A stretch of DNA of 53,033 nucleotides, counting the filler, from Sphacelaria rigidula (taxonomy: Eukaryota): NCBI GenBank assembly GCA_964200075.2. It is 4 parts of 4 records of this genome, joined end to end, with 100 filler letters (N's around TTAATTAATTAA, not from the genome) between each part and the next. Parts side by side here need not be neighbours in the genome. Positions count along the whole stretch, not along the records: positions 26,571 to 39,754 come from CAXNAA020003086.1; 3 more parts are not named here. The stretch is one strand, 5' to 3'. Under the pieces are notes generated by a model. That model ran no database searches, had not been told where the DNA came from, and saw only the letters and a list, made by a program, of their open reading frames with translations. Positions 13,410-53,033 of this stretch are shown in pieces. Made by a program: the position numbers and the translations under genes. How positions within the stretch are numbered: position 1 is the first letter of the stretch; each line of letters opens with the position of its first letter.

Positions 13410-13960
13410 AACTATGGTTGTACTCTGTTACCCCTCCGTCTCCCTTTTTCAGGGTTGGCGTCGGTCGGGCAACGACGCTGTAAATTATGCCACTCGCTGC
13501 ATAAGCTAGGCAACCAGGTCACCGTTTTTTGTCTTGCTCGCGTTTTCATGCGGTAACCATGATGGTGTTCGAGCTGGATTATTTTGTGCGGGGTGGAGAA
13601 CCTCAAATCCGCGCGAAGAATAAGATCGTACTACGTAGTGTTTGAATGGTGAGACACCCATGACGCAGTGTGTCAGCCGTGGCTTGTCGCTGGGCATGGG
13701 CGATACCCGAAATTGAAGCAACTCATTCGAGGTTTGTCAACCACATGCAAGAAAGTTAGTACGCATCGGGCCGAACAATCTTAGCAGGATGCAGGTCACC
13801 TCCCATGCGACTCGCCGAACACATCACAGCGCTTCGCGCTTGGTAATTGCGAACCTGGTCCTTCGAAAATCCGGCGCACTCCATCCCGACTTTGTGGGGA
13901 TGCGAGTTCAATGGTCTTACGGCTATGGCATGCAGAATCGTGAGTACCCCTTCCCCCCCC
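13410..13960 (-). repeat. Interspersed ~570-bp repeat family with G-rich GTACTCA(T/C)GA end
   Basis: Its reverse complement aligns with 49870-50440. Partial copies lie at 45310-45575, 49555-49750, 52925-53033 and ~39605-39640. Confidence 0.8.
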
Positions 13961-21814: not shown

Positions 21815-24800
21815 CTACCACATCGTAGCGGCTTCGGAGGCGGGGGTGAAGGCCGCCGCCACGCCTGAGCTTTTCGAAATCGCCGCGACCTCAGCCGGTG
21901 GGGCCAAGGACGAGGAATGGGACGGGCTTCTACGACCTTTCTTGATTAATGGCGTGGATTCCAACGTCCGCGATGACTCGGTTGTCACAACAGAAATATC
22001 TGTCACCCGATCTCTAGTCCGTTTTGAACCCAACGGAGCGCCGGCGCTGGAGCAGGGTGCATCACTCTGGACGGCAGCAAGATCGGGCTGCACCTGGCCC
22101 TGGAACGAGAACAAAGAAGCGACCGCCGCAGCTGCCACCTGTCGATCCTGTGCGGCCTGTCTATCGGCATCCTCCTGCGCCGCAGTAGCGGGCACCACCC
22201 GTCGTCCCCATTCATCCGTCCCTGCGCCCAGCGGTGACGATATTGCACCCTCCGTCGTCCACGGCTGTGCCACGGCATCCGCAGCGGCGGCGGCGATGAC
22301 GGGTGTAGAGAGGAGTGGATTACTCCTGGACACCGGACCTACTATTACCCCCCAGGGATTGCCCGCCACAGCAGACGCTACGGGGGGGGAAGGTTGGGTG
22401 TCGTTCTCGGAATGCTCGTCCAGAGGCGGAGTTGCTGTGCGCGGCGTTGCCACTTCCGTAGAAGCCTGCGATAATCGACTCGCTTTTTCGGCAACCGCGA
22501 CGGCAGCGGTGGCGACCAAGGGCGAGTCCTCGATGGACGTGACGACAGAGCGGGCAGGAGGCGGATGGCTTGTTGGTTTCAACACCGCCGTTGTCGGCGA
22601 CGCTAGCAGGTCTTCTGGCGGCAGGACAGCCCGCGGCGGCGACGGCGACGGCGACGGAGAGGAAAGCGTATCGCTTCTGCCTCCCGTCGCTGGGTCGCTC
22701 ATTTTTAACCTTTTGCTCGGTCGCGGTGAAGCCCTCTGCTTATCGCAGCGCGTGTCCCACGGATCAGACCTCGAAGTGGCGGCAGGCGTTTCTTCACTGA
22801 CCACGGAATCGGATATAACACGATGGCCGTGAACCGGGGAATTGTGACCGTACGATTCGCTCCCAGGCGACGGGCTCCGTTGCGGGAATACCTCGTGGGG
22901 TGCAGCATCGGCGGATGCAGTTTCGGCGGGCGCAGTATCGGCGGTCATCACAGTCGCATCATCCTCTGCAGTTTCCTGCAGATTGTCCATAGCCTCCACA
23001 TCGCGCAGCGCGGCGCACAGTCTATGGAGCCTCTCACCCTTCACGTCACCAGCCCCCTTGCCGGCGGAATGAGCCGACGACGATGCAGACGGTATTGGCG
23101 CATGCTCCGCGAGTTCTTTTGCTTTGGCCGGTGGTGGTTCGGAGGCGGGGGTGGCCTCCACAAACCGACCAGCCGCTGGTTTCTTGCCCATTGCAGCGTT
23201 AGCCGCCGCGGCCGCTAACGCCGCCGCACGAGCTGCTTCAGTGACAGGTGCTTGCCATCGGCACGAGTTCGACGCCGTTCGATCATCGCTACAATCAGAT
23301 TCTTGGGACGACGACTCTCCGCCCGTCGAAGCGGTCGCCAAGCTCGCATTTCGTCGCTTCGCACTTTTCGAAGACAAGCGCGCGACGGCGGCGGAGGTGG
23401 CGGTCGCCCGCCCCCCCGCTTGAGCGGTGGCGCGCGATCCATCCTTGGCATCTGTCCGCTGCGTCTTGAGCGATGTTGACTTGGCGTCGCCGCTGCTTGG
23501 AGAGCCCACGCCACCTGCGTCGCTGGCGCGAGCTGTCGCCGCCATCGCGGCTAGTTTGGTTCTCGCGTCACGTTGACGGCGATTCAAGGCTTTCCATCGG
23601 ATCTTGACCGCGTTTTCTGTGCGCCCCGTAAGGCGCTTTGCGATATCCGCCCATCGGTTACCAACTTCGCCCTATTATGAGAGCGCAAGCGGGATGACGT
23701 TGGCGGCAGCAGCGGTAGCAGCAGTAGCAGCAGCAGAGGTGAAACTTGGGCATACATCGAACATTGCGATAGTGACAAAACTAGTCCAAAAACGTGAGAA
23801 AAAGCCAGTCGCATCGGGAAATGATGGAAGGACGCCACAAGAACGAACGACGACGCGTGAAAAAAAATCGAACCCGCCAAACCGCTTGGGGGTGGGATGT
23901 TACGACAAAATCAACGGCGAACAGTGGACATTCCAAAAGTAGGCTATACTGGCGCGTACCTTGTACCAGAACTACTCAAGAGTGTTTTGCAAACCGTTGA
24001 GATATTTACGGTTAAACTACAATCACACCACCCTGTTCGTGTGATCTACACAGAAATGTCCCCCTAACAGGACAAGGAACGAGGAACGACAGTAGTGGAA
24101 TAGTGCAGGGTTTGAGGCACAGTCCCGCATAGGAGGGATCAGTAAAGTCGCGGTATAGTTTGTGCGAGAAGATGACACATCTGCGTGTAGGGATGATTGC
24201 CCTCCCCCCGCCCCCCTTTCCCGACCTCCGTCCCCCAACTGAAAGAACGGGAACAGCACACTAGGACTTGCGGGCCACCTGGTTTCCGTGTTACCTGGAG
24301 ACAGATGATGAGCTCGTCTTCTTCCGTGGTGTAACCGCCCTTCCGGACTGCTGGGTCAAGGTGATGGCACCAGCGCTCGCGGCATTGCTTGGACGTTCTT
24401 CCCTCCATGAACGACGCCACCTGTCAAACCAATAAAATTTCGGACGGGTGGGTGCAACATACCCAAGCGAGACAAGCGGACGTTGAGATGGGTCAATTGA
24501 CTTGAAAAAATCGCGACAAGATCGCAAACTCCAACTGGACATTTGACCTCGAGCGACCACATTCATAGCTGATGCCCATCGCATTCTCCTCTCCCCCGCT
24601 CGTCGCTTGTCAATGGTCAAACGACCAAGGCAAGCAACAAATGAGTACGCCTCCTCCCCCCCGTGCTCCGTCTCGAAAGGGATGCGTGGTCACTGGTCAA
24701 ATGACTAAGGCAAGCAACAAATGAGTACGCCCCCCCTCCCCCCCCCGTCGCTTGTTCTGTGTAGTTAGACATGATGCAGCTATTCCCAGCGGCGGTACAT

Positions 24801-25751
24801 ACTCTGGCGAGCTAGAGGCACACAGTACGTCGGTTTTAGCAAGGTACAATTTCGGACGACCATGTTCGGTGGCGTTTTTTTGCGGTCAGCTATCGTACGT
24901 CCGATGCCAACTTCAATGGCGGTGAATCCGCAAGATATGTCCGAATGCCCTCGGGTGGATCACTCCGCTCTCGAGGTTGATCAGCAAACAAGGCCAGTGT
25001 TTCTCAGCGAAGACATGCCGAGCTTCTGAGCAACCGACTCCATCGACAATTCTTGCACGTAGTGGCCATTTCTTACGTTGGAAGTATCGTGGCTTTGTCA
25101 TGAAGCTGTCACCCGTATGCGGAGACACAATCCAACAAATAAGTGACTTTTGTTCTTCTACAGCGTAATAGAAAACATCCCTCTGAAAAATGGAATCTCC
25201 ACCCAACACGGGATCTTACAAATTGGGGATGAGAAACCCGGAGGATTAAAATCTTCGTATCCACACCAAATCTTCGAAATATGGCTCCATTGCTTCACCT
25301 ACTGATAACTATTGACAACTGCTACACGCCATAGAAATTTGGATTTCGATTACCGAAATGTTGGGGCCCTAGGTGAAAAACGATTTCGGAACAGTTTTGG
25401 CGTCCGTTCGGACACCCGGACTTCCCCAAAATTGTGTTTTCACCTAGGACCCCAACATTTCGGTAATCGAAATCCAAATTTCTATGGCGTGTAGCAGTTG
25501 TCAATAGTTATCAGTAGGTGAAGAAATGGAACCATATTTCGAATATTTGGTGCGGATACGAAGATTTTAATCCTCCGGGTTTCTCATCCTCAATAAAAGA
25601 TCCATCCCCAATTTGTAAGATCCCGTGTTACCCGCTTTGTTAATCACGTACGCACCTGTCCCCAATTGCGAAAGCCTCGTTCTACCACACGTACTAGACG
25701 ATCATCCTCCTCTTGACTCCACTGCCCCTTCACCAGACCAGGTTTCAACAC
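21815..25751 (-). CDS. 3R-type (R1R2R3) MYB transcription factor, 5'-incomplete
   Basis: Phase-0 exons with GT-AG ends: 25751-25656 (VLKPGLVKGQWSQEEDDRLVRVVERGFRNWGQ; end of R1 and start of R2; not in the ORF track), 24420-24295 (VASFMEGRTSKQCRERWCHHLDPAVRKGGYTTEEDELIICLQ), 23671-21815 (GEVGNRWADIAKRLTGRTENAVKIRWKAL followed by a long Ala/Ser/Pro-rich tail to the stop). VLxPxLVKGxW before R2 parallels c-Myb VLNPELIKGPW, implying an R1 exon beyond the contig end. Confidence 0.9.
25205..25629. mobile_element. Foldback/MITE-type element with ~175-bp terminal inverted repeats in a MYB intron
   Basis: AACACGGGATCTTACAAATTGGGGATG... is mirrored by ...CATCCCCAATTTGTAAGATCCCGTGTT. The arms are near-perfectly complementary apart from a ~19-nt insertion in the right arm. 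ACCC flanks both ends (25201-25204 and 25630-25633), a candidate 4-bp TSD. Confidence 0.88.
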
Positions 25752-26570: not shown

Positions 26571-27266
26571 AAACTGCCGTATGTTGGCAAGCACAGATTA
26601 TTGCACACGAATTATTGTTCAGCGGCCAATCTCGAAACCTCGAAGCCAAGCGAATCTGAAAAGTAGGCCAGGCTCCTCTCTGTGGGGTGACGCAAAATGT
26701 CCGAGACGTGTGTTGGCGGTTTTCCCTGTTTGGGGGTCAAAAAGTGGGTCAAACGTCCCCAAAGTGAAGAACCCGTGGGCCAAAAATCTGTTTCGCCATA
26801 CCATCCGGCCTAAATATTGAAATTGAAGGAAGGAATAGAGTGGACCAAATTTTCGGAGTCTCCATGGAGTCTGGTCTGGAACCATATCCCGAACAGTTTC
26901 ACGTTCGCTCCATTTCTCACGCCGATGTCTAACGTTTGCCTAGGTAACTGGCGAGCGGCCTCTATACGTTAGTGATGACCTAGGGCTGTCCTTCAGGGAC
27001 ATCAACGTGAAAATTTTGTCTCCAAGCTCTTGGTGCACGTCGGAAGAAATGGCTGCCGACGAAATTCGGGGTTTTCTTCCGCGGACCAGCTCGTCCTGCC
27101 GTCGCGGTAGTAGACCTTTCGACCAATCTGTCTCTCGTCGAATAGGAGCCATGATAAGCACGCTTTATGCAACCACGCTGTCCTTTCCCGCTCGTTCCAA
27201 ACAAAATCTTCCGCCCCACAGACAAACGGAGCGGCCACAGCTGTAGCTGGCTCAACACCGTGGCGG

Positions 27267-30200
27267 ATGCGGGGGGTGTCTCCACTCTCGTGCTTGTGCT
27301 GCTGGGGGGCATCGGGCTACACAGATGTCCCAAAAGATGCACCGGACGGTATTTACAAGCCTCCCGGTAACAAAAAAAACAGCTCCAACAGGAAAACACT
27401 TGACAGCTCGACCAAAACGGCGGTCGCTACTCCTTTGCCCTCTTCCAACGATGCATGCTGGGATTCCGACACCGGTAATCCGCTGGTGGACAACACACGA
27501 GTGCTGAGGCTTGTATGGTCATTTTCCAGTGCGGAGGCTTTTCTGTTCATTGCCGGAGTGTCACGACATTGGCGTCACGCATGGGGTGGTACGAATAACG
27601 GTAGTTTCCACGAGGATAACGGCAGTAATAGTGGTCGACCGCGGGCCACGGTTACAAGCCTCTACAGCGCTGTGCAATCCACGTCGTGTCTGGCGTGGTC
27701 CAAAGACAGCGGGTTACCATGGAATGAGAAAACAGCGGCCTATGCTGCTGCCCTCGGTGGGTTAGAACAGATCAAGTATGCAAGAAGCCAGGGTTGTCCT
27801 TGGGACGAAATGACGTGCAGCATGGTGGCCTCCACAGGACAACTGGAGCTGCTGAGGTGAAGAGTAATTATTGGCAAAAAGTACTCGTGAGTTGTTCGAT
27901 GAATCGTGTGCGTTTGATTCGATCTCTAGCCAACGTAAGTCGTACAGCGTATATATACACACTCCACACGGGATACCGTCTCGCGAAACATTGTCGATTG
28001 TGAAAGTTCATGTTGGTGGCTTCGCGCTTCTTTTCGCGCTTCTTCTCCGCTACTTCATGTGCTTCGGGTATCTCACTACCGATGTCCAATCCTGTGATCC
28101 AGTTCTGGTGAACTTATGTTGAGTTCGCGTGCGTGCTGTGGAGGATTGAACTGGATCAATTTCGCAAAAATATCCTTCTGTGGGAGTCAATCAACGCTAG
28201 TCTATGAAGTAGCACCATGTAGATTGTGGTCTCTGGGACATACGGAGGGTGAAGACTCGCTGTCACTTCTTTGTTTTTTTCCAGCCCTGTGTGTTTGCCT
28301 TAATGGTGCCGGCATCACTGGTGGCACATGTACACTCCCTTGAAAGGCTTTTAAAAGTAATAGGTAGGCAAAAGTCGTCATGGCGTGGTTATCAGTAGAT
28401 GAGGTATATATGGAACATTTTCGAGCCACTTTTGTCGGACAGTAAGAAGGCATGATTGATCGTGCCCGCTTGCTGTGTAGGAAATAATGCTCCGACCGCG
28501 CGAGTATGGGCGGCCAATGCTGTGGCAGCAAGGCCGTCCCAAAGACAAAATACATGGCAATACGCCACCCTTGGTTTGCATGGACCTTGAACGCACAGAT
28601 GGCTGAGAGACAACGGCTGTCCGTGGGATAAATACACATGTGCAGCGGCAGCGGGGGCAGGATACTTGAAGCTGGTGAAGTGGTGCAGGGCCAACGACTG
28701 TCCCTGGAGCAGATCGACATGTGAATGGGCTGCCGGGGGAGGACCGATCGAGAAGCCTGTGAGGTTAGTTTATCACACAATGGATCAAAACGCTCATGAG
28801 CGGCGTTCACATTGTAACCCGATGGATTCGCTCGCTGGGGGTACCCTTCGGTGTCCCTTGTATCTAACTAGAAAAGGTACAGAGTAGACGGCCTGGATGA
28901 TGATGCCCGATCAAAAGCGTGAGAAACTGCAGGATGGAAAATTGACCCTCTCTGGCAACATGGTGCTACTATGGAGGAAGATAACAAATAGGAATAAAAT
29001 TCACCTATCTTTTGTTTCCTCAGTTGTTATTTTCGTGGGAACACGCGATTAGCACGCGCGAACAACGTGATTCATTGACTGTGAGGTGCCTATGAATGCA
29101 TGGGAGGGACCCATATCGCTGTGATTGTGGACACCTATCCTCCACAAATATGCTCCGCTTTCGTTGCCACGCGCGTGACGTCGTCAGCGCTAGAAGGCTC
29201 AAACTGAGCAACAGTTTTGCAGTTGGTTGTGGTTGAGTGGGAGATGACAGCTCTATTGTACAAGCAAAGTACGTAAGCAATACAATCTTCCATCTCTTGA
29301 TTAACCCTTTTGGGACTGAAGCTCAGTAACAAGGGGTTCACCATGTATTAGTAAAATAATGATAGACAAGTCTGGGAGCGACCAGCCCAATCACGACGAG
29401 ACGAAATGTATCGACCACATCCGAACGCCCAGTGGAGGGGGGCTGTCGCCGGGAGTGATGTCACTGCAAAGTTGGTGTACCCTGTCTCTGGCCCACGAAA
29501 GAAGCCTTCGAAGCAGAAGAAAATTTCAATTGGTCGGGGCTCGGATTCCCGTTTTTTATTTACTTGCATTTCATGTAGGTCCAACCTCCCACCGCCCGGA
29601 TTGTTTTACTCACCATACTAGAGTAAAACCTAGTTGATAACACTAACACGCAGTGCTCGGGGGAAATTCGGGAATATATGTACCCTACTATATATGTGGT
29701 CACGTTCACAAGGCGGTTGAATATGGCAACGCTATGGGACGAGAGACGGAGCTAGAGACATGAGTTCTGCGTATCCCTCTGGTGAAGCAGTACAAGCGCT
29801 GGTGAGGTCGTATGTAATCGATGGTGACGAACAGGCTGTGTATAGGCAGCTGATCTCCGTCGCGGAGAACTGCCAAGAACATGTGAGGAAGTATGCAGCG
29901 GCAGCTGCTGCTGCATTCAGAAAGGCGTGCTGCACTGTTGTACTGTATCTGTGGCGCAACGCCCATGCCGTTCGAAGACAATTTGCCGCTTGCAACAAAG
30001 AGGGAAATCGCGGCCCAACCCGACCACAAAGGGCTGTGTGGCAAGGTGATGGGGATAATATCCAAGGCCGCACGTCGCGGGCGGCGGTTGTCACATCCTG
30101 TGGAAAGCTCTCCACGGCGACTCATACTGCTCGATACATTTGTACATTACCTGATGCGCACATCACCCGAATGCTAGTACAGACAGTTTGCACCTGCACC

Positions 30201-32934
30201 TGAAAATAGATTGGATGAAACTTTCGGTCTTCATCCAACCCTGCGGTTACATACATACGTGGATATTCAGCAACATGAAGCCACTGTTTCATGCATATTC
30301 AGGACACGTCATTCCTAACCAGCATCATCGGTCGTTCTGGAGGCCCAGTTCCAAAAGGGTCAACCCAAGTGTATCATACGGTATACGGTGTGACAGCCAG
30401 TGGAGTTAGGTACCGCTGAGTTATACCCTATTACTCGGCCATTAAAAATAGATTCGGCTGAATTATACGAGAATGAGTTAACTCGAGTTATGGTGAGTTG
30501 AGTTGTCCGACGTGTGTGATCATGCCTCATGATTACCGAACATAACACCCGCAAGAAACATACTGTAAACGTATGCTGTACGTAGTCGGTCATAATGATT
30601 CGGCTGCTCTTTGTCTAAGGGCTGTCGCGCAATGCATGAAAGGTACGCCGAGGGTAAGTGGCTAACGGTCCTCTATAGACCCCATCGACGGGTTTGTTTG
30701 CCACCTCGACGTCGACTCATCACGTCCTGGACCTGGAAGAATGTTATTTCAATATCATTCGTTTATTATTTTGCAGGACGAACATATGTCATACTGTATG
30801 CTGAATGTTTATTCTGATAATTTATATGTTGATCATCAGCACCGCAACTTCAATCGAGACGTGATCAAAGTGATCCTTCATTAGTACGCATACTTTTTCA
30901 TTGAGTCGGAAGTTTGTCAATAGCTAGTTATCTAGGTTTCAAGTATTAGAATATTTGATGCAAAAATATTGATGCGACAAAAGTAGACGATGATCTTGTA
31001 CATGAAAATTCTGATATAGAGGCTCTAACATGTGTAGGTCCACCTGCTGTAGTTGGCATCAAATTGCAACAGCCCTTCACACCCGTGAACATATCTCGCC
31101 CTTTGCTGGACAACCGTTTTGTATGTGTTTTTGGGAGTCGATTTCCATTTCAATGTCGCTTATTCTTCAACGTGTTGAATGATCCTCAAAATTGAGCGAA
31201 ATATCGTCAGGTGTTGATTGCTAGTGACCACCGTCGCAGTTGGATCGACACGACACTTGATCGTGCCCAGTCTCAACACACTATGTACGGGTCACCACAC
31301 TTTACTCAGTTATTCTCTTTACTCGTGTGTCATGGTGACCAAACCTGACATCCGCAAAAAACATACTGTACATGGGCTCCATAGTTGTGTTCATGTGTAT
31401 GTTTCGTGTATGTTTCATGGATCCACCTGTTGTAGGTGGCTTCGAGCACTGACAACCCCTCACACCTGCCGAGCATTTGACTGAACGTTGCAACTATTGC
31501 GTTGCGTGCGCTACATGAACGCGCTGCTGCACTGAAAATAGCTATTGGGGCGTCGGTTGAGCGCGGTGAAGCGAGGTTCACCGGAAATACCAGGGGGTTG
31601 AGTTGGGTTGGATAATACGGAAGTGCGAGTAAGTACGAGGACGTCACTATTATTTCTTTTCAATGTACTTTTATCAATTCGGGCAACGTGACTATAATTG
31701 CTTTTAAATGTACTTTTGTCAATTCGGGCAACGTGACTATGATTGCTTTTCAATGTACTTTTATCAATTCGGGCAACGTGACTATAATTGCTTTTAAATG
31801 CACTTTTGTCAATTCGGGCAATCATCAATCTACTACTGCAGCAGCTGATATCGTGCCCGAGGACGTGATGGCTTCCGCTTGGCTGGCGGCGTGTGCCGTG
31901 TGTATGGCGTCAGACAGCACGCCGGTTCCACGTTGCCGGCTCACTTCACTTGCACCCTACACGTGAAATGTTTGTTCGCAGGCATGTCGTGGCCGCTCGA
32001 CCGCCTGCTGACCCTGCCCCACTTGCCATCGGACCTTGGACATTGTGGATAGTAATATAGAAACATGTTGAAAATATATATTTGCGACCTTTCCTCTTCC
32101 GGCTCTCTGGTTCTGTAAATTTCGAACCAAGGTGCCAAACATACCATACACGAGCCCGCTTGGCTGCACTTGCATGCTCCAATTCTGGATTGGTGGACAC
32201 AACCCGAGACCATGTTTTGTCATTTCGAATTGTACAGTTGACGTTCCAACAACCTCATCGATGTGGTTGTGTGTATTTCCATCGTTCGCCCACAACGTAG
32301 TAAAGGCAGCGAGAGGAGTCATTTTGCGACGTCAATCGTTCAAAATGGGTAAGCAGTACCCCGTTGGCCATTATTTTCATAATCTCGTACAGACAGCAAA
32401 AGTGGGCAAAATTTGGGCATATTTGGATACTCACAAGGCTCTTCTTTTCGCTCATCTCGATGAACGTGTTGGACTCATCCTCAACCTTGATTTTCCTAGC
32501 AGCTTGTTTGATGGGCTTGCTTTTATTGGACAAGATGCCGCCAGCTACTTCACACGTGTACCAGCAACGGAATGGACGAGGGAAAGTGATAAGACAGCAC
32601 CAAAACGCGAGAAAATCCCCGACTGTAGATATGATACCCCGCCCTATCGCTCAACTCTGCAGGTGGTGGACGATCAATCATGATATCGGCAAGGGCGGTG
32701 CTGACAATAGTACTGGCGGCGAGATGGAGTCTAGCAGGAGTGGCGCTGGGTGGGAAAGGGGAGTTGAAGATAAAGCGGTGGCTAAATTTGATTGGTTTGC
32801 CGTCGTAGCTAAGACGCATCAACAGCGTGTGCGTAATCAGATGAGGAACCTGATGGTGCTCAAGTGGTGCCGAAGGAATGCGTGCCCGTGGGATAAGAAG
32901 ACTTGTGTTAGCGCTGCGCAGAAGGGGCACCTCA

Positions 32935-33001
<67 letters not shown>

Positions 33002-36000
33002 TGTGTCTGTGTCTGTGTGTGCACGGGTGGTGCTGTAGGGTGTCAGGAATGAAATACGCACCGTATCGAAACCTACATGTCTCCACTGCCGCTAAAAAAA
33101 AGGCCTATTACAAGACGGACTTTGATCGTTCAAGGAGAAGTTGAGATAAGTACAATAGCTTTGCCTCAAGAGCGTGTTGGCTTTCATTTTCGTCCATATT
33201 CATCGAAATTGATCAAATTGGTCAATTTTTCTCCGCGTTGCTCGCAGAGTGAAAGTGAGGGACGTCTCTTCTATCTCTTAGCTCATTCTTAGCGCACTTT
33301 CTGCTACTGCATAGACAGTCTCCAGGCCATCCTTGGACAATGAAATGATTATCGTCCTTGTGGGCCCCAGTTGGGTCTTTCCAATGAGTCAATGGGCTAA
33401 AATCGAGGCACAGGGCCCACAGATGGGGTGACAATTTTGGCTGGCACGATTTTTGGACCAACCGGAGCCTCCCAATATACCAAAATTCGGCGTCATTTCT
33501 TGAGTCAGATGAGATGATCGAGTGAGAATTGAGTGGTCAAATAGCCGTGATTGGCCCACACATTGCGCCGCTGCCAGTCAGACAGCTACAGTCATCAATC
33601 GCTTGGGATACAGCAGCACCGTTCTGGCTCAGTTTGTTTGCCCCAACCTGCAAGCGTCCGCCTTGCGTGTCTTCTCCGATCACGGCACTCGACTACAACT
33701 GAAGTACCAAAGAAGACGCAACACACAGCTGCATAGTCGTCACGCAATCGTTTCAACTCTGTGTACAGCACTTTGATCCCACCCCAATTCTGTGCAGACC
33801 GAAACACGTCATGCAGCAGTACAACTGTTCAGGCACTCTCCAGCGCACATCACACCATGTTCGTCGTAGAGTGTATAGATGCACAACACCACAGCGACAA
33901 CTACAGCATAGAAATGATGGGTGAGTGTGGGAAGTGCCTTGTTCGTTTGACGGAAGACGAAATAGCCAACACACAACAACAGTGTGTAGACAGCACTAGG
34001 TGCCAACAAACACAATTTTCCTCATATTCTGTAAAGACAAAGGCAGCGACAGTAAGGCAACTGCCGCAATCCCAGCTGAGACCAAACCGTCTTCGCAAAG
34101 ATTCAAACACACCACAGCGCAGTGACAGCTACAGCACATGAGAGGGCGTGAGTGTGTTTGTGCTGCAGCACGGCGAAACAGCACATGTCCCATGTGACAG
34201 TTCTTCCCCTCATTCCACACCATCCTCAATTTTTGCCGAGTGCCGATTTTTAAATGCTCGGGGATGATCGCGCTTCGCGCGAAAATCTTTTAATTCACGT
34301 CGAGTTACCCCTTTGAGTCACCCCCATCTTAGGGTTAGAATGAAAATAGTACGTGGGTACTTTCAGCAATGCAGGGACTTCTTCTTCTTCGTCTTCTTCT
34401 TCTTCGTCTTACCTCCAACCTCTCGCCTTCCTCGGAACAAGTTCATGGTCCAAGGTATCAACCCATCTCTCTCTTCTCTGTCTCTCCCCCGGTACACGCC
34501 TTGCATTTTCGCATAACGGATTAGATCAGCACTCCCGCACCGCGCCGGCTGCAGTCCAAGACACTCAGCGAAGCAGCGAAGCAGCCTCTTTTTGCCACAC
34601 CCATTCTCGCGCTCAACCATGGGACCACGGAAATCAGAGAATTTTGCAGAGACCGCCACTCCTCACGCATCTGGCGGTAACCGAACCTGCCTCTTTTCTG
34701 CGCTAGTGGTGCTTGTTGTACCTCTGCACCACCCGGTGAACGCGGCTTGAATAATTCCACAGATTGAAGGCGCCTGACACGCCGTGCGCCATCTCTCAAA
34801 TCCTGTTGCAGGTATTCGCTCATGGATTCTGATCTGTTGAGCTGTTCCTGACAATTTTGTACACTGCTTCGAGCTGCTTAGATGAAATCTCCGGCCTACG
34901 CATAGACGTTGCAGGTTGAAAAATATGAATGTTTGATTCATGTAATATCCAGGTGTTGCAGTGGTGCAGGGGCCACGGCTGCCCATGGAACAAAGACGTG
35001 TGTGACGCAGCGGCTATGGGAGGTCACCTGGACGTCTTGTGGTGGTGCAGGGCTAACGGGTGTGAGTGGAGCGATGCAACCTGTGTGGCGGCCGCCTACG
35101 GTGGAAACCTTCGCCTCCTCAAGTGGTGCAAGGATAATGGATGTCCGTGGCAGGCGGAGGCTATTTGCCAATATGCTGCATGGAAAGGTCACCTGGAAAT
35201 TCTACAGTGGTGTGTGATGAAAGGCTGCAAGTGGAGCAAGGTCATGTGTGAGGGAGCGGCTCGAGGTGGGCACCTTGAGGTGAGGGCGGTGTGTGCATCT
35301 TGAGGGAAGGTGTATGTGTGCCGGTGGAAGTGTGCATTGGAATGATATGCCATGTACTGAAGCTTAAGAAGAGGGGACAACCAAGTGAACGTCTACGCAT
35401 TCGCCGAAGTTCTTCGTCTAAACAGCTCGAAGCGATGTAAAATTGTCTACAATAGCTCGGCGGATGAGGAATGGCCCAGTGTCTACATGAGCGAATATTT
35501 GCAGCAGGATTTGAGAGATCGCGCACGGTGTTCCAGCCATGTGAATTCTGTGGAATTCAACAAGCCGTGTTCACCTCAAGGGGTCATGTCCACTGCGATT
35601 CCCAGCACCTTTTTTTCATATTGTTCCGAAAACCCACGCCACGTGTCACCACAGGGGCATTTTCATCAGTACAAGAGTAACAATGTATAGCAGGACAAGT
35701 ATCGTACCATGTTAGCACCGTCCGCCTGACTCTATACCACTTAGTGCACGTGTCTCATGTGGAACGTTTTTGCGCATGGATCGTATCGTACTTCTTCAGG
35801 GCTAGGTTGGTCGTCCTTTGACCGCCGGGTTGGATTGTCTGTTGAATCGGCACCAATTTCACCTGAAAAATGAACGAGGCAAGACCGTTATGATCAACCC
35901 TGTCAGCCGAAGGGATGCAGGCAGTGCAGACTGTAGCAGCCACGCGGGGAATGTCTTATGTAAGATGATGCTCGGGCGTCGCCGCTTGTGCTGTCGCGGC

Positions 36001-37852
36001 GCTCGGCACACGTGAACAGAACCTTGCGTGTACATAGCCTGCACATATATGCTCCGCCCGCCTGGGCTACAAGCGAGTTGGGCGGCACATGACATAATCT
36101 GCCTGGCGTTGCAATTGCAGCTCGTTGCGTCAGACAGTTCACTGTTACAGCACAGCATAGTACGTCGTTGTATAGTAGAGTAAGTCTACATGTAGCGGCA
36201 CGCTCGGGGACCAAAGAAGCCGTACACGATGACTTTGCATGACGCTTTCCCTCGGCTGGTCCTTGAAATCACCCATCGGTCCGCCGTCACTAGCAGCTGA
36301 GCAAACTTATCGGTGTCTTGTGCAACAAAGCACGCATAAGGAGGTTCGACGGCGATTGCTTGCATGTTACCAACACTCTGCTCTCTAGTGTACACCCGTG
36401 TGGTTGCTCCAATATTTGTTCACCTTCAGCGAATAGAGCGGCTCCTGATCCTGGTTCATCCACTGGCTTCCAGGGCAAGGAAGCAAGGTTCGGACGAATA
36501 ATCGTCGGTCCAAATCACCAAATCCACGGTTTTTTAGGTCTGATTACTCTGAAGAGATGAAAACGCTGCTCGCTGGTCAAACATGTATCCACGCCTTTTC
36601 TGCGCCATTCCACGTGCGTGGAGTGCGCGTACGCGATTGCAACGCTGAAAACAAGGGCCGAGGGTTGATTCGTATGGTACGAATCAGTTACACGAAAATC
36701 AAGAAAATCCCACACGAATTATTAATTCGTCCGACCCTTGAAAGGAGGCACTGTACGCTTCGTGTATTTTCCACACCCTGGACAAGGAACTACACTGTCA
36801 AAATATGTACTGTGTAAAGCATCAACTATTGTGTCTTTTGCAATAGACAATATATCTCATACGGTACGAAGTAAACTTTTCGACGGTGTAATCTATTGTC
36901 CGGGGTTTGGTGTTTTCGCGGGAGCTTGATAGACTTGTTTCGATTTCACTCTTATGGCCCGTGTCTAGGGTCCAAGCAATAGTAGAGAACAATAATGTTT
37001 TACCGGAGGGTGTGTGCATATTTGAACGCATTTGTGTGGGTGCACGAGCTACCCTACTGCGTCGTGCTGCAGTACACCACAGGATAGTGTAGCGCTGACT
37101 GACAGGGAGTACAATTACGGTCGAGGCAATATATCGCAGTTAAGAGAGGGTGGAATGAGTGGCGGCCTTGAACGATCAACCCCTTTATTGCGAGGGTGGG
37201 TCATGCGGGTCTTGTGCACTCATTTTTCAAGCGAAAATGATGCCAGTTCCACAGATAACACAAGAGGACGATCAAAGGATTCATTATTCATAGATGCTGC
37301 ATCCGATGTAGCAGGCCAAGCCAGCAGCACAACACCCCGAATATAGCGGTACGCCCCCCGATGAACTTTCCCTTTCCGAACTCTCGGGGCGACTTGTTGT
37401 CTCTTGAGCAGCAGGCTATGGTGGATGTTGGTATCATCCTGAGCTATCATCAGTTCTATGTTCTCGAAAATTGCTCATATTTGCGTGCATTCGCATTTTG
37501 CGCCATCGAAAGGCGTTCCCATGATTCAGCCCTCCTTTCTCTCCAAATGCACAAAATACTTTGCTGACCGCCACGAGCATGAATGTCATCGTATCATCAG
37601 GTGCTCAAGTGGTGCAGGGCAAATGGGTGCCCGTGGGACGAAATGACCATTGCATGGGCAGCATATGCACGACAAGCAGAGATACTGGAGTACTGCAAGG
37701 CCAACGGCTGCCCTACGGGAGAATTCGCCAAGGAATGCATTTTGGCCATAGAGCAGGGTACGCTATCGGACGCTTCAATTATGACGATAATGTTTTCGGG
37801 GAACGCCACGTGGTTCAGGGAAAAGGCCTCACGCAGTGGGGCTGATGATTAA
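27267..37852 (+). CDS. Ankyrin-like repeat protein (WCRxNGCPW..TC..AA..GHL repeats) with F-box-like N-terminal motif
   Basis: Five exons with compatible phases: 27267-27856 (start codon tentative; LRLVWSFSSAEAFLFIAGVSRHWRHAW, GCPWDEMTC), 28599-28763 (WLRDNGCPWDKYTCAAAA; phase 2-2), 32663-32936 (..VLKWCRRNACPWDKKTCVSAAQKGHLK; phase 2-0), 34953-35279 (VLQWCRGHGCPWNKDVCDAAAMGGHL..; phase 0-0), 37601-37852 (VLKWCRANGCPWDEMT..stop). All boundaries are GT-AG. Confidence 0.88.
31643..31821. repeat. 45-bp tandem repeat, ~4 copies, in ankyrin intron 2
   Basis: Unit GTGACTATAATTGCTTTTAAATGTACTTTTGTCAATTCGGGCAAC, with units starting at 31688, 31733 and 31778 plus a diverged first unit. Confidence 0.95.
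32937..33020. repeat. (GT)n microsatellite starting at the splice donor of ankyrin exon 3
   Basis: CTCAAG|GTGTGTGT... about 32 units, then GTCT variants. Confidence 0.98.
34735..35575. repeat. Inverted repeat pair (arms 34735-34910 and 35388-35575) flanking ankyrin exon 4
   Basis: For example, 34782-34824 versus the reverse complement of 35486-35528 matches at 39/43 nt, and the complementarity continues collinearly over ~180 nt. Confidence 0.92.
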
Positions 37853-38599
37853 GGAAAATATGTCGCTTCTTTTGCATGTTTGTGGAATATACAATACCTT
37901 TGGTTAAAAACAGCAGTATCTCTCAGCGTGTGTCCTCGCTTTGCAGACGTTTTTTCGGAGAGATTGGTTTCTGGGGGCTATTCGTGCGATGTTGGTCGAT
38001 GCCGTTCTCCATATCCATCGAAGCGTATTAAGGCTGTCAAGTGGTATGAGAAGAAGTTTGGAGAAACTGGAGCGATTGAAAAAATATAAGATGAGAGAGT
38101 CATCATTTCCCCCTCTTTTTTTGGCGTGTTCAAACTTGATTATCAAGAGTATCTCTGCTGTATAATGTGTGTTTGCTGCGTTCAATCGTTGTATGAAGAT
38201 GTGTGCTTAACGGTAGGGTTGCCATATAGTCAAGAAATAGGCTGTAGTTACCATGTAGTTGGGGCGAAGCAAGAGGTAAGAATGTAGGTTATATATAGAT
38301 GACAAGGCGGGGAACACGGATGTCGTTTGAGGGGCTGGTTGTCCTCGTTGTCCTGGTTGAATAGTTGCGCTCCCTTTAGTTGTGTATTTCGTGACCGGCG
38401 GGCACTTCCTGAATGCAATTTGATGACGTGCGCACGTATCGAGGCTGCCGGGTGCTCATTGTCATCAAGGGAGGAGGGAAGATCCATGGCGTTGGTGCCC
38501 GTACGTTTGTTTGGTCAAACCTGGCAACGTTTCCACACTAAAGTAGTCAGCGTCAGAAGTTTTCAGAATTCGTAGTTGTTGTTGAATTTTTCTTCAGTA

Positions 38600-43160: not shown

Positions 43161-45309
43161 TGAATCATACGGAAGAAATGGGATGAGAAAGACTAGAGTA
43201 CTGGATTGCGGGTGGAACGATGAGGAAAAGTGCATAGGAGAAAGATTGCAGCGCGACTGAGACAGAGGTCGACGGTCGATATGTCGTAGCATTCCCTCTG
43301 CTCGCACTGATGCCTTCGAGGTTACTGTGTCTGTTGACAGAGAAGACGATGTTGGTTGATGAAAGCGGGAAGGGATATTATGACGATGGGAACAAAATTC
43401 GCGAGACGATGAGGGATAGGACCGCGGGTATGAATGATGAGAGAAAGTGCGAAGATTGCAATGGAAGACATAATCGACTCCCGGTGTAGAAAAGCTGTGA
43501 TCTTACATAGCACCACCAGCTGGAGAAAAATACCCGACCCAGGACTCGAACTCGAATCCCGGTGTGAAGAAACAGGGTTCTACTCACGCACTACGAGCAA
43601 CACACATGTAGCCGACACAGGGTTCGAACCCATACCGACGTCTTGCACATCCATGATGTCATATTTCACCTACAGAATACTTAACAAACGGAGGACTCTT
43701 GTTGTGAAGGAACAGTGGTTTTTTACTCGTGCCCTACACGAGCAAAAGGAAGGAGCCGACACGGGATTCGAACCCATGCCGACCCCCTTAACATGGATAA
43801 ATTTACCTTCTAGCTACAGTGTAGACGCACATCTTGTAATCGGACCGCCAGATTCCACCTTCGGAAGATGCTAAGCTTTAGATATGCTACAATTATAATT
43901 CCGATATATAGACATTATGGGAAGCTCGCATGCGGGCGGGTGTGGACATTACACACTCATTCCAGTATAAATCGCCGGAAACATTGCAGGACCACCGCGA
44001 TCATACGTTCATTCGAACGGTCGCGAACGCTTGTGTACCCCCGAACAAACTGTAGCACGAATCCACGGATCGGACCCCTAGCATTGGCATTGGCCCGAAC
44101 AGTCATCTCCAGGGGCGGGGTGCGGAGGAACTTGCACACTAATATCAGCATTACATCTCGTGGACGCCTCGTTACAAACTATGATTTCATGCTCGTGAGT
44201 TCGAAATATCCTATAGATATACTATATATTGCTTCACCAATATGTGTTGTGACCGTCTGTTCCCTCGTGTATTGTCTGCCCAGTATGTATTGGACGCATT
44301 GACGCACAGTATATTGGGGCAGCAATCTATATTGACGCTTCGGGTCTCGAGTATGTTGAATCATCAATATATGTATCGATCTCGTGTGGCAGGCAATATA
44401 TTTCTCGACAAATATATATTGGTGCCTTACCGCACCACGATGTAAGTCGGCCAAAATATATTGAGGTGGCGCGTGTCGTGATATGTTGTTCGGTCGATAT
44501 ATATTGCGTGCCGCTAGCCTTGTCGACATGTTGAGCGGGCAATATATATATAACATATTGTATTGTCCAGGGTGTGGAAAACTCCGCCGCCTCTGCTCTT
44601 GAGAGGTGGCTCGACGACCACGGTGGTTGGGTATATCCACCTTGCGGATGATGACTATCGCTGGGTGAATTGGAGATCAATTCATGTGCGACAATCAATC
44701 AGTCAAACGTCTTTCACTGGGCCGCTTACACGGGGTACATGCTTTTATGCTTTGTAACTGACCCTGTAGGATATGGCGAACGATTTGCCTATCCTATAAC
44801 ACCTCAAAAGGGGAACGTTCACCAAAACACCAGAACGCATTCTGTTTCGACCATCCTACAACACCGGACCCTGAAGTGGTGTCTCAAAATACTCTGCGCT
44901 TCACCCAAGGTTTCAAACTTGCTTACAATTACACGCATTTTGGGACACATACCAAAATAGGGCACCCGGAAGTTTCAAACATTTGCTCGAAACCACTTCC
45001 CGGTCCATGTATTCCACGATGAGGATCACCTGTGGAGGTTTCAAAACACCGCATGCTTCACCCAATTTTGAATACTGTGTTTTTGTGGAGGTATTTTGGG
45101 ATAGCTTTCAACATTGACAACACTTCAATTTTCAAAATAACTCGAACCATGGGCAGGTTTCTCGAAATGAGGGCGCTGAGACACCCCCTCGTGCGTGGTG
45201 TTTTCAGAATCGCGCGCGTCACCAAATTTAGATTCTGGGCTGTAGATTTTGGATTGCCACGCGTCACCGGCTGTCGCAGTACCTAGATAAGAACAGGGTG
45301 CAAGTGCAG

Positions 45310-45575
45310 GGGGCAGGGGATGTACTGATGCTCTTGCATGTCGTAGTCGTGTAACCATTGACCTCGCGTCTCTACAAAGCGGGACGGAGCACGCTGGGCT
45401 TTCGCCGGACAAGGCTCACCATTAATCATCAAGCGCGGAGCGCTGTGATGTGTCTGGCGAGTGGCACGAAGGGTGTGCTTCATCCCGCTAAGATCGTTCG
45501 GCCCGACCGGTACTGATTATTCTGCATTCGGATCACAGCCTCCAATGAGCTGCTTCACTTTCTGGTATCGTCACT
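45310..45575 (+). repeat. Partial copy of the same interspersed repeat
   Basis: ACCATTGACCTCGC..CTACAAAGC.GGACGGAGCACGC and CATCCCGCTAA..TCGGCCCGA..GTACTGATTAT are shared with 49880-50125. Confidence 0.8.
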
Positions 45576-48500
45576 TGAGTGATGCGACAGTAGGGGTGCA
45601 AAAATATTTCCCGAGGTTAGAATTGTCAGAAGTTCTTTCAAACCACGACTTATGAAATAAGTGAGAGTACGCCAGAATTACTATTCCAATGTGCTAGGGA
45701 TATCCCAAATGAATTCGCAGACGGGGATGCCCTGACCCATATTCTTGTGCATCTAGAAATCGTCCGGAGCCCCTGAGCCAGGCAAGGGCTTGCGCAAAAA
45801 ATGTACCCCTACCGTAGCATCGCTCCCTTCCAGAGACGGTCATGGCTTACACACTTCCTAACGGGTGTCTCACCCTTGTGCAGGTGGAGGGGTACGTGAC
45901 ACAATCAACACGGGGCGGCAGAAAGTGCTACCCCATAAGCTCAGTAGCCACGGCTACGTAAACCTGCCGCTCGTCGGACCCTGCAAAAGCTCTCGTCTAC
46001 GAATCTCACACGATAGGAGTTGGGACGGTCCAGCAAGAAGGCAGCAACGCTATGCGGCAGTTGAGCCGTCGGCGGGGGGATTAATCACCCGCGAGATCCC
46101 CAGCACAACGCTAAGGTCGACGACGAGGAGGTGACTAATTCAGTAGCTTGAAACACGCAGAAGGAACTACTACCGCGACGTGGGGGCACGTACGAGTTGC
46201 CCCACGATTCTTGTGCGTTACAGGGTGTAGATGGTGTTATCACGCGTGTCTTGCGTGGTTCGGTGTTCCGCCCGACATGTCGTGATGTAAAAGCATGAGA
46301 AAGGCTGTAGTGAAAGACGGCGAATCGAAGGGCGGGGAAAACAATTCCAGCAGCAGGGGGCAGCCCGGTGGAAAATAACAAGGGGATAAAGGCAGTCAAT
46401 GCTAACCATTTTCCCCGCACAAGGTGAGAAGGGAGAACTATGACTTCTCGGGTACAGAGAACAGGGCACAGGGCACCAAGGCGTTTCTTTATCGCCTGAG
46501 CGGATCAGTATTCGAATGGTGGACACTTCAAACACGTCAAAGGACGCACGATACAACCGACCGACGCTGACGATCGGACGGCCGGCCGGCCACCCGGCGG
46601 AACCGCTGAAGTAGCGGAGGCGCCCTGCTTGTGTTGTTCATACATTTCGGGTCCGGTAACAGCGACGTAGGATTACAGCTTCCAGGAGGTACAACACCAC
46701 TCGAATATTTGCTCAAGGCGTCCCCGTGCCTATCGGTGTAAACGTGACGGGGAAAGTAGCAAATGGAGTGTGACGGATTAGCAGCGGTGTGGGTTTGTTG
46801 GACTGCAGCATATTGACTTATCTCTCTGGGGAATCCTCCCGCGGTACACCGATAGACGCACCCAAGGGAAAGGAGACGGGTGTACTTGTCGAAGGAACAT
46901 GGAGATGGGGAGAAGGCGGAGGAAGGTACGCTTAGAGGCACAAACTGACCAAGGCGAAGGGCAACACGCGGGGAAGATCATCACATTTAGATAGATGAAG
47001 GAATCCACGCATTGGCGGATGTACGGCAACGAGCAGAGACTCGTGCACCACGAGTTGAGCCACTAGCAATACACTTGGCAGTATCGTCGGGATAGGATGA
47101 AGAGGGCGGCAAGATGGACGAGCTAGAATGTGGTGTGGTACTCCCGCCGGGGCGACGACAAACCGTCGACACATTACTACGGCAGTCACCGTCTTAGATG
47201 GGCGACTTTCTTAGTATTTTCGAGGTTGGAGTTTTACGTCTGACCCCAAATTGTGGGGATCGAAATATATTAGTATCCACTCTACATTTCGGAAAGCAGA
47301 TCATTTGTGCAGCCGATGTCGATTTACGGGCTGAGCAGTTCTCGGGGGTGCTGCGACTACGCCGCCCCAGGTTCTGACTATCCGGACTTTTCCCCCGATT
47401 GAACCAATCCCGACCGTACTCGTGATCAAATTTGTAACACTTGGTTTTATTTTTACTTTTACAGCTCACGCGCTAGAGCCGAAAGGTTATGTGTTTTCGG
47501 CCAGCCACGACCAACAACACCATCCCTGACGAACGGGGCTTTGCTCCGCATCACCCCGACAGCACAAAGTTGGGGTCTGCTCTGTGAGCTCTCCGTTTGC
47601 CCAATATCTACCGGTTTACGAGTTGTCCTCAAATGTTCTTCATTAGCACTCGAAAGCGCAAGAGTCGATATATATCGGGAAAAGACGCAGGTCGTGCTGA
47701 GGACACACTTTCGGAGTTTGTCTTATCGGGGCCATACGGGATGAAGACCCAGTCCATCAGGGGGGTGTTACTGACCTTGGTCCGGAAAAAAACACAATAA
47801 TTCGGCCTTAGCGCACTGAGTAGACGAATATGAAGATATACACAGTTTTGTACATATCCTAACGAGAAGAGCCGAGATTGGTTCGAGCGGGCAAAAATAT
47901 CGAAGGGTCAATACCTGGGACCTGGTAGTCCCAGTACCACCGAAGACTGATCAGTCCGTTACTCGTTCATCATTGCTTGCAGAAATGATCTGCCTTTCAA
48001 ACGTCCATATCAAAAGTTTACCAAGTTTACCGCAGTACTGCAGAAGCGATGGTACAGCACACGCTGGATTCGAAATTTCATGCCCAAGACAGACGTTTCA
48101 TTCTCCGAGTTTGCTGAGATTACACGTCCGACCGGACGAGCCCTGTTGCCTGATACATTTGTCGATAATCAATTCCAGCAACGATAATATGCAGAAATGT
48201 TTTTTCAGAACGACGGATGGGCCGGTACAAATACCTCATCCGTATCAGCATTGCCGTCCGCTCCGCGTTTGTCGAATCCGAGCCCCATGTATCAACCGTG
48301 TTCAGATGCGCCGCGCGCATCCGCGTTCGTGGACTGGTCCGAACGAGCAGGCGCCATCAGCAGCCGCATCGTCCCATGTGGGTACTCAGGCATCGGCAAC
48401 GCCGGCCGATGCTTCCCTGGGTGGAGATACTACACGCAACTCAGAGGAGGCGCTGCCTCCGCTGCCTCCGCTGCCCTCGCAGGCGGCGAATGATCCGTTC

Positions 48501-49869
48501 AACGCCGTACTTTGATAGGCGGGGGTGAATCGGGTGCGCAAGAGGGCTAGCCTTAAGCCAAAGCCCTACACGTCGTCGCATCTATCGTTGGAAAATTCAA
48601 AGTTGCCAATCCCGCTATACGAGATGAAGGATATCGGTGCAAGGTTTTTTATTCCTCTCTGGCACAGGAAGCACGTCGCTGATAGGGTGTAATAGTGAAG
48701 CGTAGGTCGGGCGGCGCCGGTTGGATGGCGAGCATCTATGTCACGAATGTCAAACCTGCGGTGTTTTTGGCGTGCTATATTATACTTCGTACATAACACG
48801 CTTCGACGTACGACGCGTTGTGACTTCAAGTGTGTCAATCGCACGTTCCGAATTCGCCAAAGTCAGATGCGGCTACAAAAAGAAGGCATGCTAGTATGTT
48901 CTTGCCGGTGGTCGGTGAGCCTGTTTGTTTACGAGATGGTACAACAGCGCCCTCCGACACGATGATGCACGCGATCGTGGCGGCAAATTCTTGTTCGGGT
49001 AATACAGAACGAATTACGCAGATGGCATAACCCAATGCCGTCACAACCATGGAGTATGATCGAGCACACATCGCGGGAGTACGGAGAGGAACAAATAAAA
49101 AGTTGTGTCTCAGTGCACAATTGTGCCGCCCATCCCAACAGGAAAATGACGCAACAAATAAATTATGAATATGTCATTATTTTCATTTGTCGTCGCCTGG
49201 TGCTGACGGGAGACACAGTGTTTGCGGTTTTTTACACTACTTTTGCTCGGTAATCGTCGCAGTTACTCGATGTACTGTAATACAAAACGACTTGGTTGTA
49301 GCGAATCAGTCATCGCTTATTGGGACGGCGTGGGCAGACGGGCAGTCCCCATGAATATAAAAGTACCAGCCACCGCTTTTTGAGATCGAATACCAGTGAA
49401 CGAACCGCATACGTTTTTTCGTCCTTTCTGGGTTTTTTTTTCCCGGGAATGACAGGCAACACCTATTATCGGTGAATACGGCATACTTGTCCCATGGTGG
49501 TTTCTGCTCCGATCATTTTGAATGTCTTTAATGAGTTAATTCGTTTTCAAGTGTCGCCACTTCCGGATACAAGCCACGGCTTACACACTGCCTCATGGGT
49601 GTCTCGATATCCAAGCACTACTTCATATGATCATCCCCTTTGCGCGGAATCGAGGTTTTCCCACGCTGCACAATATGATTTAGCTCGACCACCATCATGG
49701 TGACCGCAAAAAAGACCGCAACCTGGTGGCCTAGCTTACACTGAGTGGCGTGTTTTACAGCATCGCTTCCAACCGAAGCCAATCCTTCAAAGACAGAAGA
49801 TGGATGGGGGCGCACTCATTTGTTTTTGCCTCAGACAATTGACCACACATCCCTTTCGAGACGATGAGG

Positions 49870-50440
49870 GGGGGAGGGATGTACTCATGATTTTGCATGC
49901 CACAGCCATATGACCATTGACCTCGCATCCCTACAAAGCCAGGACGGAGCACGCCGGAGTTTCGCCGAGCCAGTCTCGCAATCAATCGCCAAGTGCGAAG
50001 CGCCCTGATGTGTTCGGTGAGTCGCATGAAGTGTGATCTGCATCCCGCTAACATTGTTCGGCCCGAAGCGTACTGATTATCTTGGATTAGAATGACAGCC
50101 TCCAATGAGTTGCTTCATTTTCTGGTAGTGTCACTTCCTGAGACAGCCACGGCTTACACGCTGCCTCATGGGTGTTTTACTATTGAAACACTAGGTAGTA
50201 TGACCATCCCCTTTGCGCGGAATTGAGGTTCTCCCAGCACCGCACAACATGATCTAGCTCGGCCACCATCATGATTACCTAAAAACAAACGCAAGCGCGC
50301 AAAACAAATCGGTAACCCGGTTGCCTATCTTACGCAGAGCGTGGAGTGTTTTAACAGCCCCATTGCCAACCGGCGCCAACCCCATAGGGATGAAGGGGGA
50401 GGGAACGGGGAGGAGGAGGGGGGTAGAGGAAGTAATCAGG
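49870..50440 (+). repeat. Copy of the same ~570-bp interspersed repeat
   Basis: GGGGGGAGGGATGTACTCATGATTTTGCATGCC...CATCCCGCTAACATTGTTCGGCCCGA..GTACTGATTATC...CAGCCACGGCTTACAC.CTGCCTCATGGGTGT; homologous to 13410-13960(-) and 45310-45575(+). Confidence 0.8.
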
Positions 50441-52276: not shown

Positions 52277-53033
52277 TTCCACAATGGGTAGCCTAGACGT
52301 ATCCCAGGATACGCGAAAAACAGGGTTGTCCTATATTTTGACGACAAGTGTCCTGAACACCTCGGAAACGACGCTATCCCCGAACACCGTAATATACTCT
52401 GTCCCGGGACGCCTCCAAACTCATGCTGTCCAACAACGCTTTGGCACCACCTATTCTAGGACACCTCGAAAACGATGCTATCCCTAAACACGTCGAGAAG
52501 AGCTATCCCGGAACACCTCCAAAAGAGCGCTGCTCCACAGCACTTGCACACGATCGATCATAGGACACCTGGAAATCGATGTTGCCCACGTCACCTACAA
52601 ACCGGATGCGCCGGGATATCTCCAACATCAAGCCACGTTCCCACTGTTTTGAGGTGTCCTGGGAAACCCATCGGTTTGGGTATCCTAGGATAGTGGCGAA
52701 AATGCGCAATACTGTGCATAGGCTGTTTGTATTGGCCTCAGGTGTCCTAGGACAATTCTCAAACCGGGGGGTACTTCCGGCTGTGTCGATTTGGGCTTCT
52801 ATCCTTGCCTAAACGTTTCCTCCAGGAAGTTCCAAATACTCGAAATTGACTTTGTAAGCTCCTCGGGTTATCCGGGAACACGTGCACAATTCTCTCGAGA
52901 ACCCCCCCCCTCCCCGCCCGCTGGTGACGCACCCATGAGGCAGTGTATAAGCCGCGGCTATCTCTGGAAGTGGCGATACCAGAAAATGAAGCAACTCATT
53001 GTAGGCTGTTATCCAAATGCAAGATAATCAGTA

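Follow-up and report, generated by a model that had tools for sequence, protein, structure and literature searches.

The window analysed here is a stretch of 53,033 nt from the alga Sphacelaria rigidula. An ankyrin-like gene of five exons spans 10.7 kb of its + strand, as judged by splice signals and phases (Table 1). Ankyrin-like units of the GCPW type are found in + strand open frames at 27114-27860, 28591-28887, 32304-33038, 34929-35303 and 37583-37852, and the nearest protein-atlas clusters to the gene are Ank_4 families, with Chlorophyta as the commonest known phylum, which gives no more than a hint of lineage. One codon is split between exons 2 and 3, with AG at the end of exon 2 and the opening G of exon 3. 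Exon 3 ends in phase 0 in ...GHLK, at a donor whose GT begins a (GT)n tract, and the 3' UTR of exon 5 continues past 38100. Exon 4 is enclosed by the two arms of an inverted repeat, one arm in each flanking intron, and this arrangement is the subject of the analysis.

Table 1. Features of the ankyrin-like gene and of the inverted repeat around exon 4, in window positions
Feature	Position	Strand	Description and basis
Exon 1	...-27857	+	Splice signals and phase
Exon 2	28599-28763	+	From reading frame and splice signals only
Exon 3	32663-32936	+	274 nt; RNA contigs on 32661-32928
Intron 3	32937-34952	+	2016 nt, GT..AG; contains left arm
Left arm	34735-34918	+	In intron 3; repeat search, blastn, alignment, shuffles
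Exon 4	34953-35279	+	327 nt, AG/../GT, phase 0-0; Pfam, RNA contigs
Intron 4	35280-37600	+	2321 nt, GT..AG; contains right arm; RNA contig joint
Right arm	35378-35575	+	In intron 4; repeat search, blastn, alignment, shuffles
Exon 5, coding part	37601-37852	+	Begins VLKWCRANGCPW; stop TAA at 37850-37852

Exon 4 matches the Pfam family Ank_4 (PF13637) with 31.1 bits, where the gathering cut-off is 22.7, and with an E value of 2.9e-7. The initial annotation had described this exon as 327 nt long, of phase 0-0, with about three repeats. Its length and phase were right, while the repeat count was too low: the product has four units of 27-28 aa in the translation, with an 81-nt period in the repeat search. 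No repeat unit is interrupted at the borders of exons 3, 4 and 5 (GHLK/, /VLQW...GHLE/ and /VLKW, with the slash marking the border). Since exon 4 is of phase 0-0 and bordered in this way, skipping it would be in frame and in register, joining GHLK to VLKW. The annotation's expectation that skipping would change the repeat number in frame therefore agrees with the phases.

The repeat search found the inverted repeat as three collinear blocks: 34735-34824 against 35486-35575 (90 nt, 80% complementary), 34829-34858 against 35439-35468 (30 nt, 73%), and 34857-34886 against 35413-35442 (30 nt, 83%). Blastn merges these blocks into 34735-34910 and 35388-35575, with 71.6% identity over 190 columns and an E value of 6e-24, which are the coordinates that had been claimed for it. 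Gapped local alignment extends the reverse-complementary arms slightly, to the limits given in Table 1, over 201 columns. Of these columns, 144 are Watson-Crick pairs, 13 are G·U pairs on the sense strand and 8 are A·C on the sense strand, equivalent to G·U on the antisense strand; the rest are 16 other mismatches and 20 gap columns. The alignment score of 170 was reached by none of 300 shuffles (mean 19.8, maximum 34). The longest perfect run between the arms is about 20 nt, and 14 of the 15 terminal bases match. A blastn comparison of intron 3 with intron 4 at word size 7 gave the inverted repeat as the sole match with E below 0.01.

The ends of the repeat are sharp. An extension into the flanks was considered and rejected, with flank scores no better than chance: for the outer flanks the score is 16 and the shuffle mean 20.7, with all 300 shuffles reaching 16, and for the inner flanks the score is 14, which 71 of 300 reach and which is so within chance. 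The inner end of the left arm lies 34 nt upstream of the 3' splice site of exon 4 (42 nt from the blastn end at 34910), and the right arm starts 99 nt downstream of the 5' splice site (109 nt from the blastn start at 35388). The blastn arms are 478 nt apart, and this spacer exceeds the length of the enclosed exon by only about 150 nt.

This placement is striking, and two comparisons help to judge it. If a repeat of the same geometry were placed randomly in the 10.7-kb gene, it would enclose a whole exon with a chance of about 6%, a rough figure taken from exon sizes. Within the 53 kb there are five close inverted pairs (spacer below 1 kb, E<=1e-5), and one of the five encloses an exon. One further pair has a like geometry: 47293-47423 against 47862-47996, with 135 columns, 70% identity and a spacer of 439 nt. 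No exon is recognisable inside 47293-47996, nor inside any of the four close pairs other than the one around exon 4, by a weak test that uses open frames only. With five close pairs in the window, one of them of like geometry, such foldbacks appear to be part of the genome background.

The arms are predicted to pair with each other in RNA. The initial annotation had proposed folding 34700-35600, and in that fold the two arms form one long stem, with -406.2 kcal/mol, a z score of -14.1 and none of 20 shuffles as stable. When the context is widened to 2.5 kb (33900-36400), the minimum-energy fold in silico still pairs 130 of the 184 left-arm bases with the right arm. No inverted pair within intron 3 or within intron 4 was found at E<=1e-5. 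Folded singly, the arms behave like their shuffles (z -0.06 for the left and -0.87 for the right), and the repeat search found no internal inverted repeat of at least 14 nt within either arm. The predicted duplex is -225.5 kcal/mol on the sense strand and -213.0 kcal/mol on the antisense strand, so that the sense strand is only 12.5 kcal/mol better.

A similar small difference between strands is seen in the wobble pairs. The core at 34782-34824 has 4 mismatches in 43 positions, 3 of which are sense-strand G·U, just as the initial annotation had counted. The G·U preference that it drew from this holds in the core and disappears over the whole arms, where sense and antisense G·U pairs stand at 13:8 (binomial p 0.38). 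On the 181 ungapped columns the arms have 79.6% identity, a K2P distance of 0.24 and a Ts/Tv ratio of 1.31. Three differences between the reference and DNA run X4, a second strain, fall in the arms: 34902 A>G creates a pair (A·C to G·C), 35555 A>G retains pairing as a wobble (A·U to G·U), and with 35571 T>C a U·A pair is lost. This amounts to at least 3 differences in 382 nt, and the contig as a whole, with 36 in 3619 nt, has a similar density. On sequence comparison, the divergence of the arms looks neutral, and there is no sign of selection maintaining their pairing.

Public sequencing runs were used to examine copy number and transcripts. Nine runs from 3 studies contain the stretch, and 4 of them were aligned on 32300-38100 at a likeness of at least 80%, all as contigs. 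In both DNA runs, X1 and X4, one contig spans both arms and exon 4, oriented as in the reference; it is record 8 in X1, without differences, and record 16 in X4, with 36 differences and 7 gaps in 3619 nt. Two strains, from two studies, thus carry the inverted repeat. In the arm bins, contig depths sum to 30.2, 52, 30.2 and 43.8 in X1, where single-copy depth is 30.2, and to 35.4, 47.3, 27.3 and 34.9 in X4, where it is 27.3; the left arm accounts for 30.2-52 in X1, and the right arm for 30.2-43.8 in X1 and 27.3-34.9 in X4. The high-copy dispersed repeats of intron 3 (33464-34627) and the high-copy repeats of intron 4 (35792-35985 and 36374-36955) have DNA depths of up to 3,500-85,000, with peaks of 13,000-85,000 in the repeats that neighbour the arms. 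This depth contrast means that the introns are full of high-copy repeats and that the arms are not among these. In the two DNA runs the arms are near single-copy at a likeness of at least 80%, with at most one extra copy of the right arm, a partial one. Within the 53-kb window blastn gave no further copy of the left or the right arm, and two conserved arm-core patterns matched 0 stretches in JGI metagenome contigs; as a control, the second pattern matches both arms within the window.

None of the nine runs is registered as RNA; X6 and X7 were judged to be RNA by their spliced contigs. Record 24 of X7 (2307 nt, depth 267) covers 32661-32928, 34951-35277 and 37599-38100, that is exons 3, 4 and 5 in order, and record 22 of X6 (depth 314) joins exon 4 to exon 5. 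The joint 35277>37599, with its true cut 2 nt rightward at GT..AG, is carried by one contig in each RNA run and confirms the donor of exon 4. In the dominant RNA contigs exon 4 has the same depth as exons 3 and 5. These spliced contigs show that exon 4 is part of the dominant mRNA. The 15 of 217 joints listed for the two RNA runs, where contigs drop rare forms, include neither a joint of exon 3 to exon 5 nor a back-splice of exon 4, and also no strand-changing joint at exon 4 or the arms. A search with the exon 3 protein among longer proteins, which could represent an isoform without exon 4, gave 42 candidates and 0 at E<=1e-5. One RNA contig joint, 34997>37599, has 34 foreign letters between its sides; it was set aside because its shorter side is only 21 letters long. 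It is probably from a paralogous ankyrin transcript, and the 34 letters are absent from the window at up to 3 mismatches.

The arms themselves are found in RNA contigs of low depth. The left arm is in 34523-34980 (X6) and 34523-34755 (X7), and the right arm is in 35324-35718 (X7, depth 5.2). The X6 contigs break precisely at the junction of exons 3 and 4, and they do so because an unspliced contig is present there (record 21, 34523-34980, depth 5.7). The arms have about 1-2% of the exon depth, so this RNA may be pre-mRNA or a DNA trace. The intron parts adjoining exon 4 have a depth of 3.5-5.7 in the RNA runs, and some distal unique intron bins have 0. The raised depth beside exon 4 could hint at a stabilised structure, and could equally be pre-mRNA or a DNA trace.

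Taken together, we are led to suspect, with a probability of roughly 0.6, that the arms are an old local inverted duplication or the relic pair of a short repeat that is nearly extinct. One old event at the DNA level would have produced two arms that later diverged. In this event about 185 nt of intron may have been duplicated locally in inverted orientation, or the event may have been two insertions, in opposite orientation, of a short repeat which would now be almost extinct in the genome. The arms would then happen to flank exon 4 of an ankyrin-like gene. In the pre-mRNA they would be expected to form an imperfect stem of about 180 bp, with a predicted duplex energy of about -225 kcal/mol. 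Such a stem would enclose exon 4, together with its two splice sites, in a loop of 459 nt, and would do so without preventing the normal inclusion of exon 4. Circular exon 4 and in-frame exon 3-exon 5 mRNA would arise, if at all, as minor by-products; these seem plausible in small amounts because known reverse complementary matches (RCMs) favour back-splicing as well as skipping. Four observations were counted against an old duplication or relic pair: the striking position, the 14 of 15 terminal bases that match as in transposon ends, the slightly better pairing on the sense strand, and the RNA depth of the intron parts adjoining exon 4.

An unlikely alternative is that the arms are a functional RCM, a stem that is kept in order to bring the splice sites of exon 4 together, giving a regulated 327-nt circRNA, an in-frame loss of four units, or both. 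The arms do pair across the exon in the minimum-energy fold, at the z score and over the 130 left-arm bases given above, there is no competing complement inside either intron, the exon is of phase 0-0 with borders between repeat units, and the repeat is found in two strains from two studies. Known cases also make such a stem easy to imagine. Repeats of 30-40 nt are enough for circularisation in human minigenes (Liang and Wilusz 2014, as cited in PMC9860190), and in C. elegans, according to PMC8330042, RCMs favour back-splicing as well as skipping, and deletion of a single arm removes both products. Against this, the dominant RNA contigs keep exon 4 at the depth of exons 3 and 5, and the 15 of 217 joints listed, from contigs that drop rare forms, contain neither a back-splice nor a joint of exon 3 to exon 5. 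The bias toward sense wobbles is not significant, the strain differences taken together do not preserve pairing and are as dense as in the rest of the contig, and circRNAs of land plants rarely have flanking complements, as PMC9860190 reports. The available evidence does not favour a function in splicing, and the inverted repeat is not a proven splicing switch.

The remaining explanations concern DNA-level mobility and small RNAs. It is very unlikely that 34735-35575 is one mobile element of about 840 bp, with terminal inverted repeats (TIRs) of about 180 bp around a Pack-type ankyrin fragment, which landed in an intron and became a new in-frame exon. The outer ends are sharp and their terminal bases match like those of TIRs, exon 4 is of phase 0-0 and made up of complete units, and, since neither arm forms a hairpin by itself, the two arms behave like the ends of a single unit. 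A target-site duplication (TSD) of 2-11 bp flanking 34735 and 35575 is absent, however; the best case has 3 of 10 matching bases, and it was judged absent rather than decayed because at 28% arm divergence a decayed copy should match better. Nor are there further copies at a likeness of at least 80% in the two DNA runs, where arm depth is 30-52 and single-copy depth about 30, or in the window or the JGI metagenome contigs. Both arm reading frames share the peptide SEYLQQDLRD, only because their DNA is alike, and Pfam finds no family and no transposase in either frame. It also finds no family in six frames from the neighbouring high-copy intron repeats and the adjacent intron. The initial annotation had named one finding that would speak against its own reading, namely that both arms belong to an abundant MITE family with its own TIRs and TSDs. 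What was found is different: depth is 30-52, there is no TSD, and neither arm folds alone, so the arms are not two MITEs. A hairpin-RNA locus, in which the intron-exon-intron hairpin, excised or unspliced, is diced into small RNAs, is highly improbable. The long imperfect stem and the presence of both arms in low-depth RNA-run contigs would suit it, but Rfam gives 0 matches at gathering score across the window, 34500-35800 has 0 even at E<=1, and, with the two arms in separate introns, the hairpin is confined to the unspliced transcript. Hardest to credit is a DNA inversion switch, in which recombination between the arms would flip exon 4 in some molecules. The inverted-repeat geometry alone speaks for it, whereas the arms are just 72% alike with short perfect runs, each DNA run has its one contig in the reference orientation, and no strand change is among the joints listed.

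A more far-reaching picture, which we consider quite unlikely, would be a working RCM in an alga of a lineage in which pairing between introns is not known to act on splicing, where a stem of about 180 bp loops out exactly four ankyrin units and yields a 327-nt circRNA and a shorter, in-register protein. A bolder version would have the whole cassette delivered by a long-TIR transposon. If the stem does act on splicing, it would extend to an alga the RCM mechanism, for which animals provide thorough tests and land plants few cases, and would vary the ankyrin repeat number at the RNA level with the DNA unchanged. If the cassette was carried by a transposon, this would be exon shuffling caught in the act. 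As the evidence stands, this is a functional-looking structure that behaves like neutral intron sequence: it is low-copy and freely diverging, and exon 4 is kept. The locus can help to calibrate scans that pick out inverted repeats flanking exons.

Pack-type TIR transposons (Pack-MULEs and Pack-MITEs) carry TIRs of 100-200 bp around a short gene fragment. The locus resembles them in having long inverted ends that enclose a gene fragment, and differs from them in being without a TSD, other copies or any relation to a known transposon end. The LLERCPs of maize, LINE1-like reverse complementary pairs that flank circRNAs (PMC9860190), are a plant-lineage case of transposon-derived inverted pairs beside circRNA exons and are alike in that respect. 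Those are identifiable retroelement copies, whereas the arms here have no family, coding relic or extra copies. In green algae, a literature search of titles and abstracts found no paper on the RCM mechanism. Compared with RCMs such as human inverted Alu pairs, C. elegans zip-2 and mouse Sry, the arms are near single-copy and 28% diverged rather than members of an abundant family like Alu, and no back-splice or skip is among the 15 of 217 joints listed. In their layout, however, they are much alike: the complements lie in both flanking introns near the splice sites, predicted pairing across the exon is preferred over pairing within an intron, and the arms are far longer than the 30-40 nt reported to be sufficient in PMC9860190 and PMC8330042.

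One contig in each of the two RNA runs joins window position 34997, in the ankyrin-like gene, to position 37599, at depths of 312.8 and 242. Between these two positions the joining contigs carry 34 foreign letters, which are absent from the window, and the shorter side of the joint is only 21 letters long. The joint probably comes from a paralogous ankyrin transcript.

Introns 3 and 4 contain dispersed repeats, whose positions are collected in the table below together with those of the other repeats in the window. In the DNA runs the summed contig depth of these intronic repeats was 3,500-85,000, compared with about 30 for single-copy sequence, and they are well represented in the RNA runs too. 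Reading frames taken from the repeats and the adjoining intron sequence had no match to a Pfam domain, and no complementarity was found between the repeats of intron 3 and those of intron 4. Exon 3 is followed directly by about 90 nt of (GT)n/(GTCT)n sequence (32937-33028), and intron 3 has its 5' splice site at the first GT of this tract (AAG|GTGTGT...). The tract was passed over as a repeat when reads were placed.

A second foldback in the window resembles in its geometry the arms that flank exon 4. It holds no recognisable exon, and it has no sequence kinship to the exon 4 arms. Within the span of the perfect 27-nt inverted repeat, reading frames at 25309-25491 (+) and 25325-25507 (-) encode near-identical peptides, so its inner part is also a palindrome. 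G+C is 0.61 at 22001-24000, versus 0.43-0.53 elsewhere in the window.

Repeats and foldbacks in the window
Feature	Position	Extent	Identity	Spacer	E
Dispersed repeat, intron 3	33464-34627
Dispersed repeat, intron 4	35792-35985 (core ~35838-35870)
Dispersed repeat, intron 4	36374-36955
Second foldback	47293-47423 / 47862-47996	135 columns	70%	439 nt	4e-10
Inverted repeat	25205-25629	27 nt	perfect	372 nt
Members of at least one dispersed repeat family, long-range inverted orientation	13451-13958; 45309-45570; 49530-50382; 52930-53033		72-88%		down to 5e-104

The exon borders in exons 3, 4 and 5 of the ankyrin-like gene sit exactly between repeat units, which suggests that the gene grew by exon or unit duplication. 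The units in exon 4 (34953-35279) and in exons 3 and 5 follow a consensus of approximately VLxWCRxNGCPWxxxxCxxAAxxGHLx, and are 27-28 aa long, versus 33 aa for the canonical ankyrin unit.
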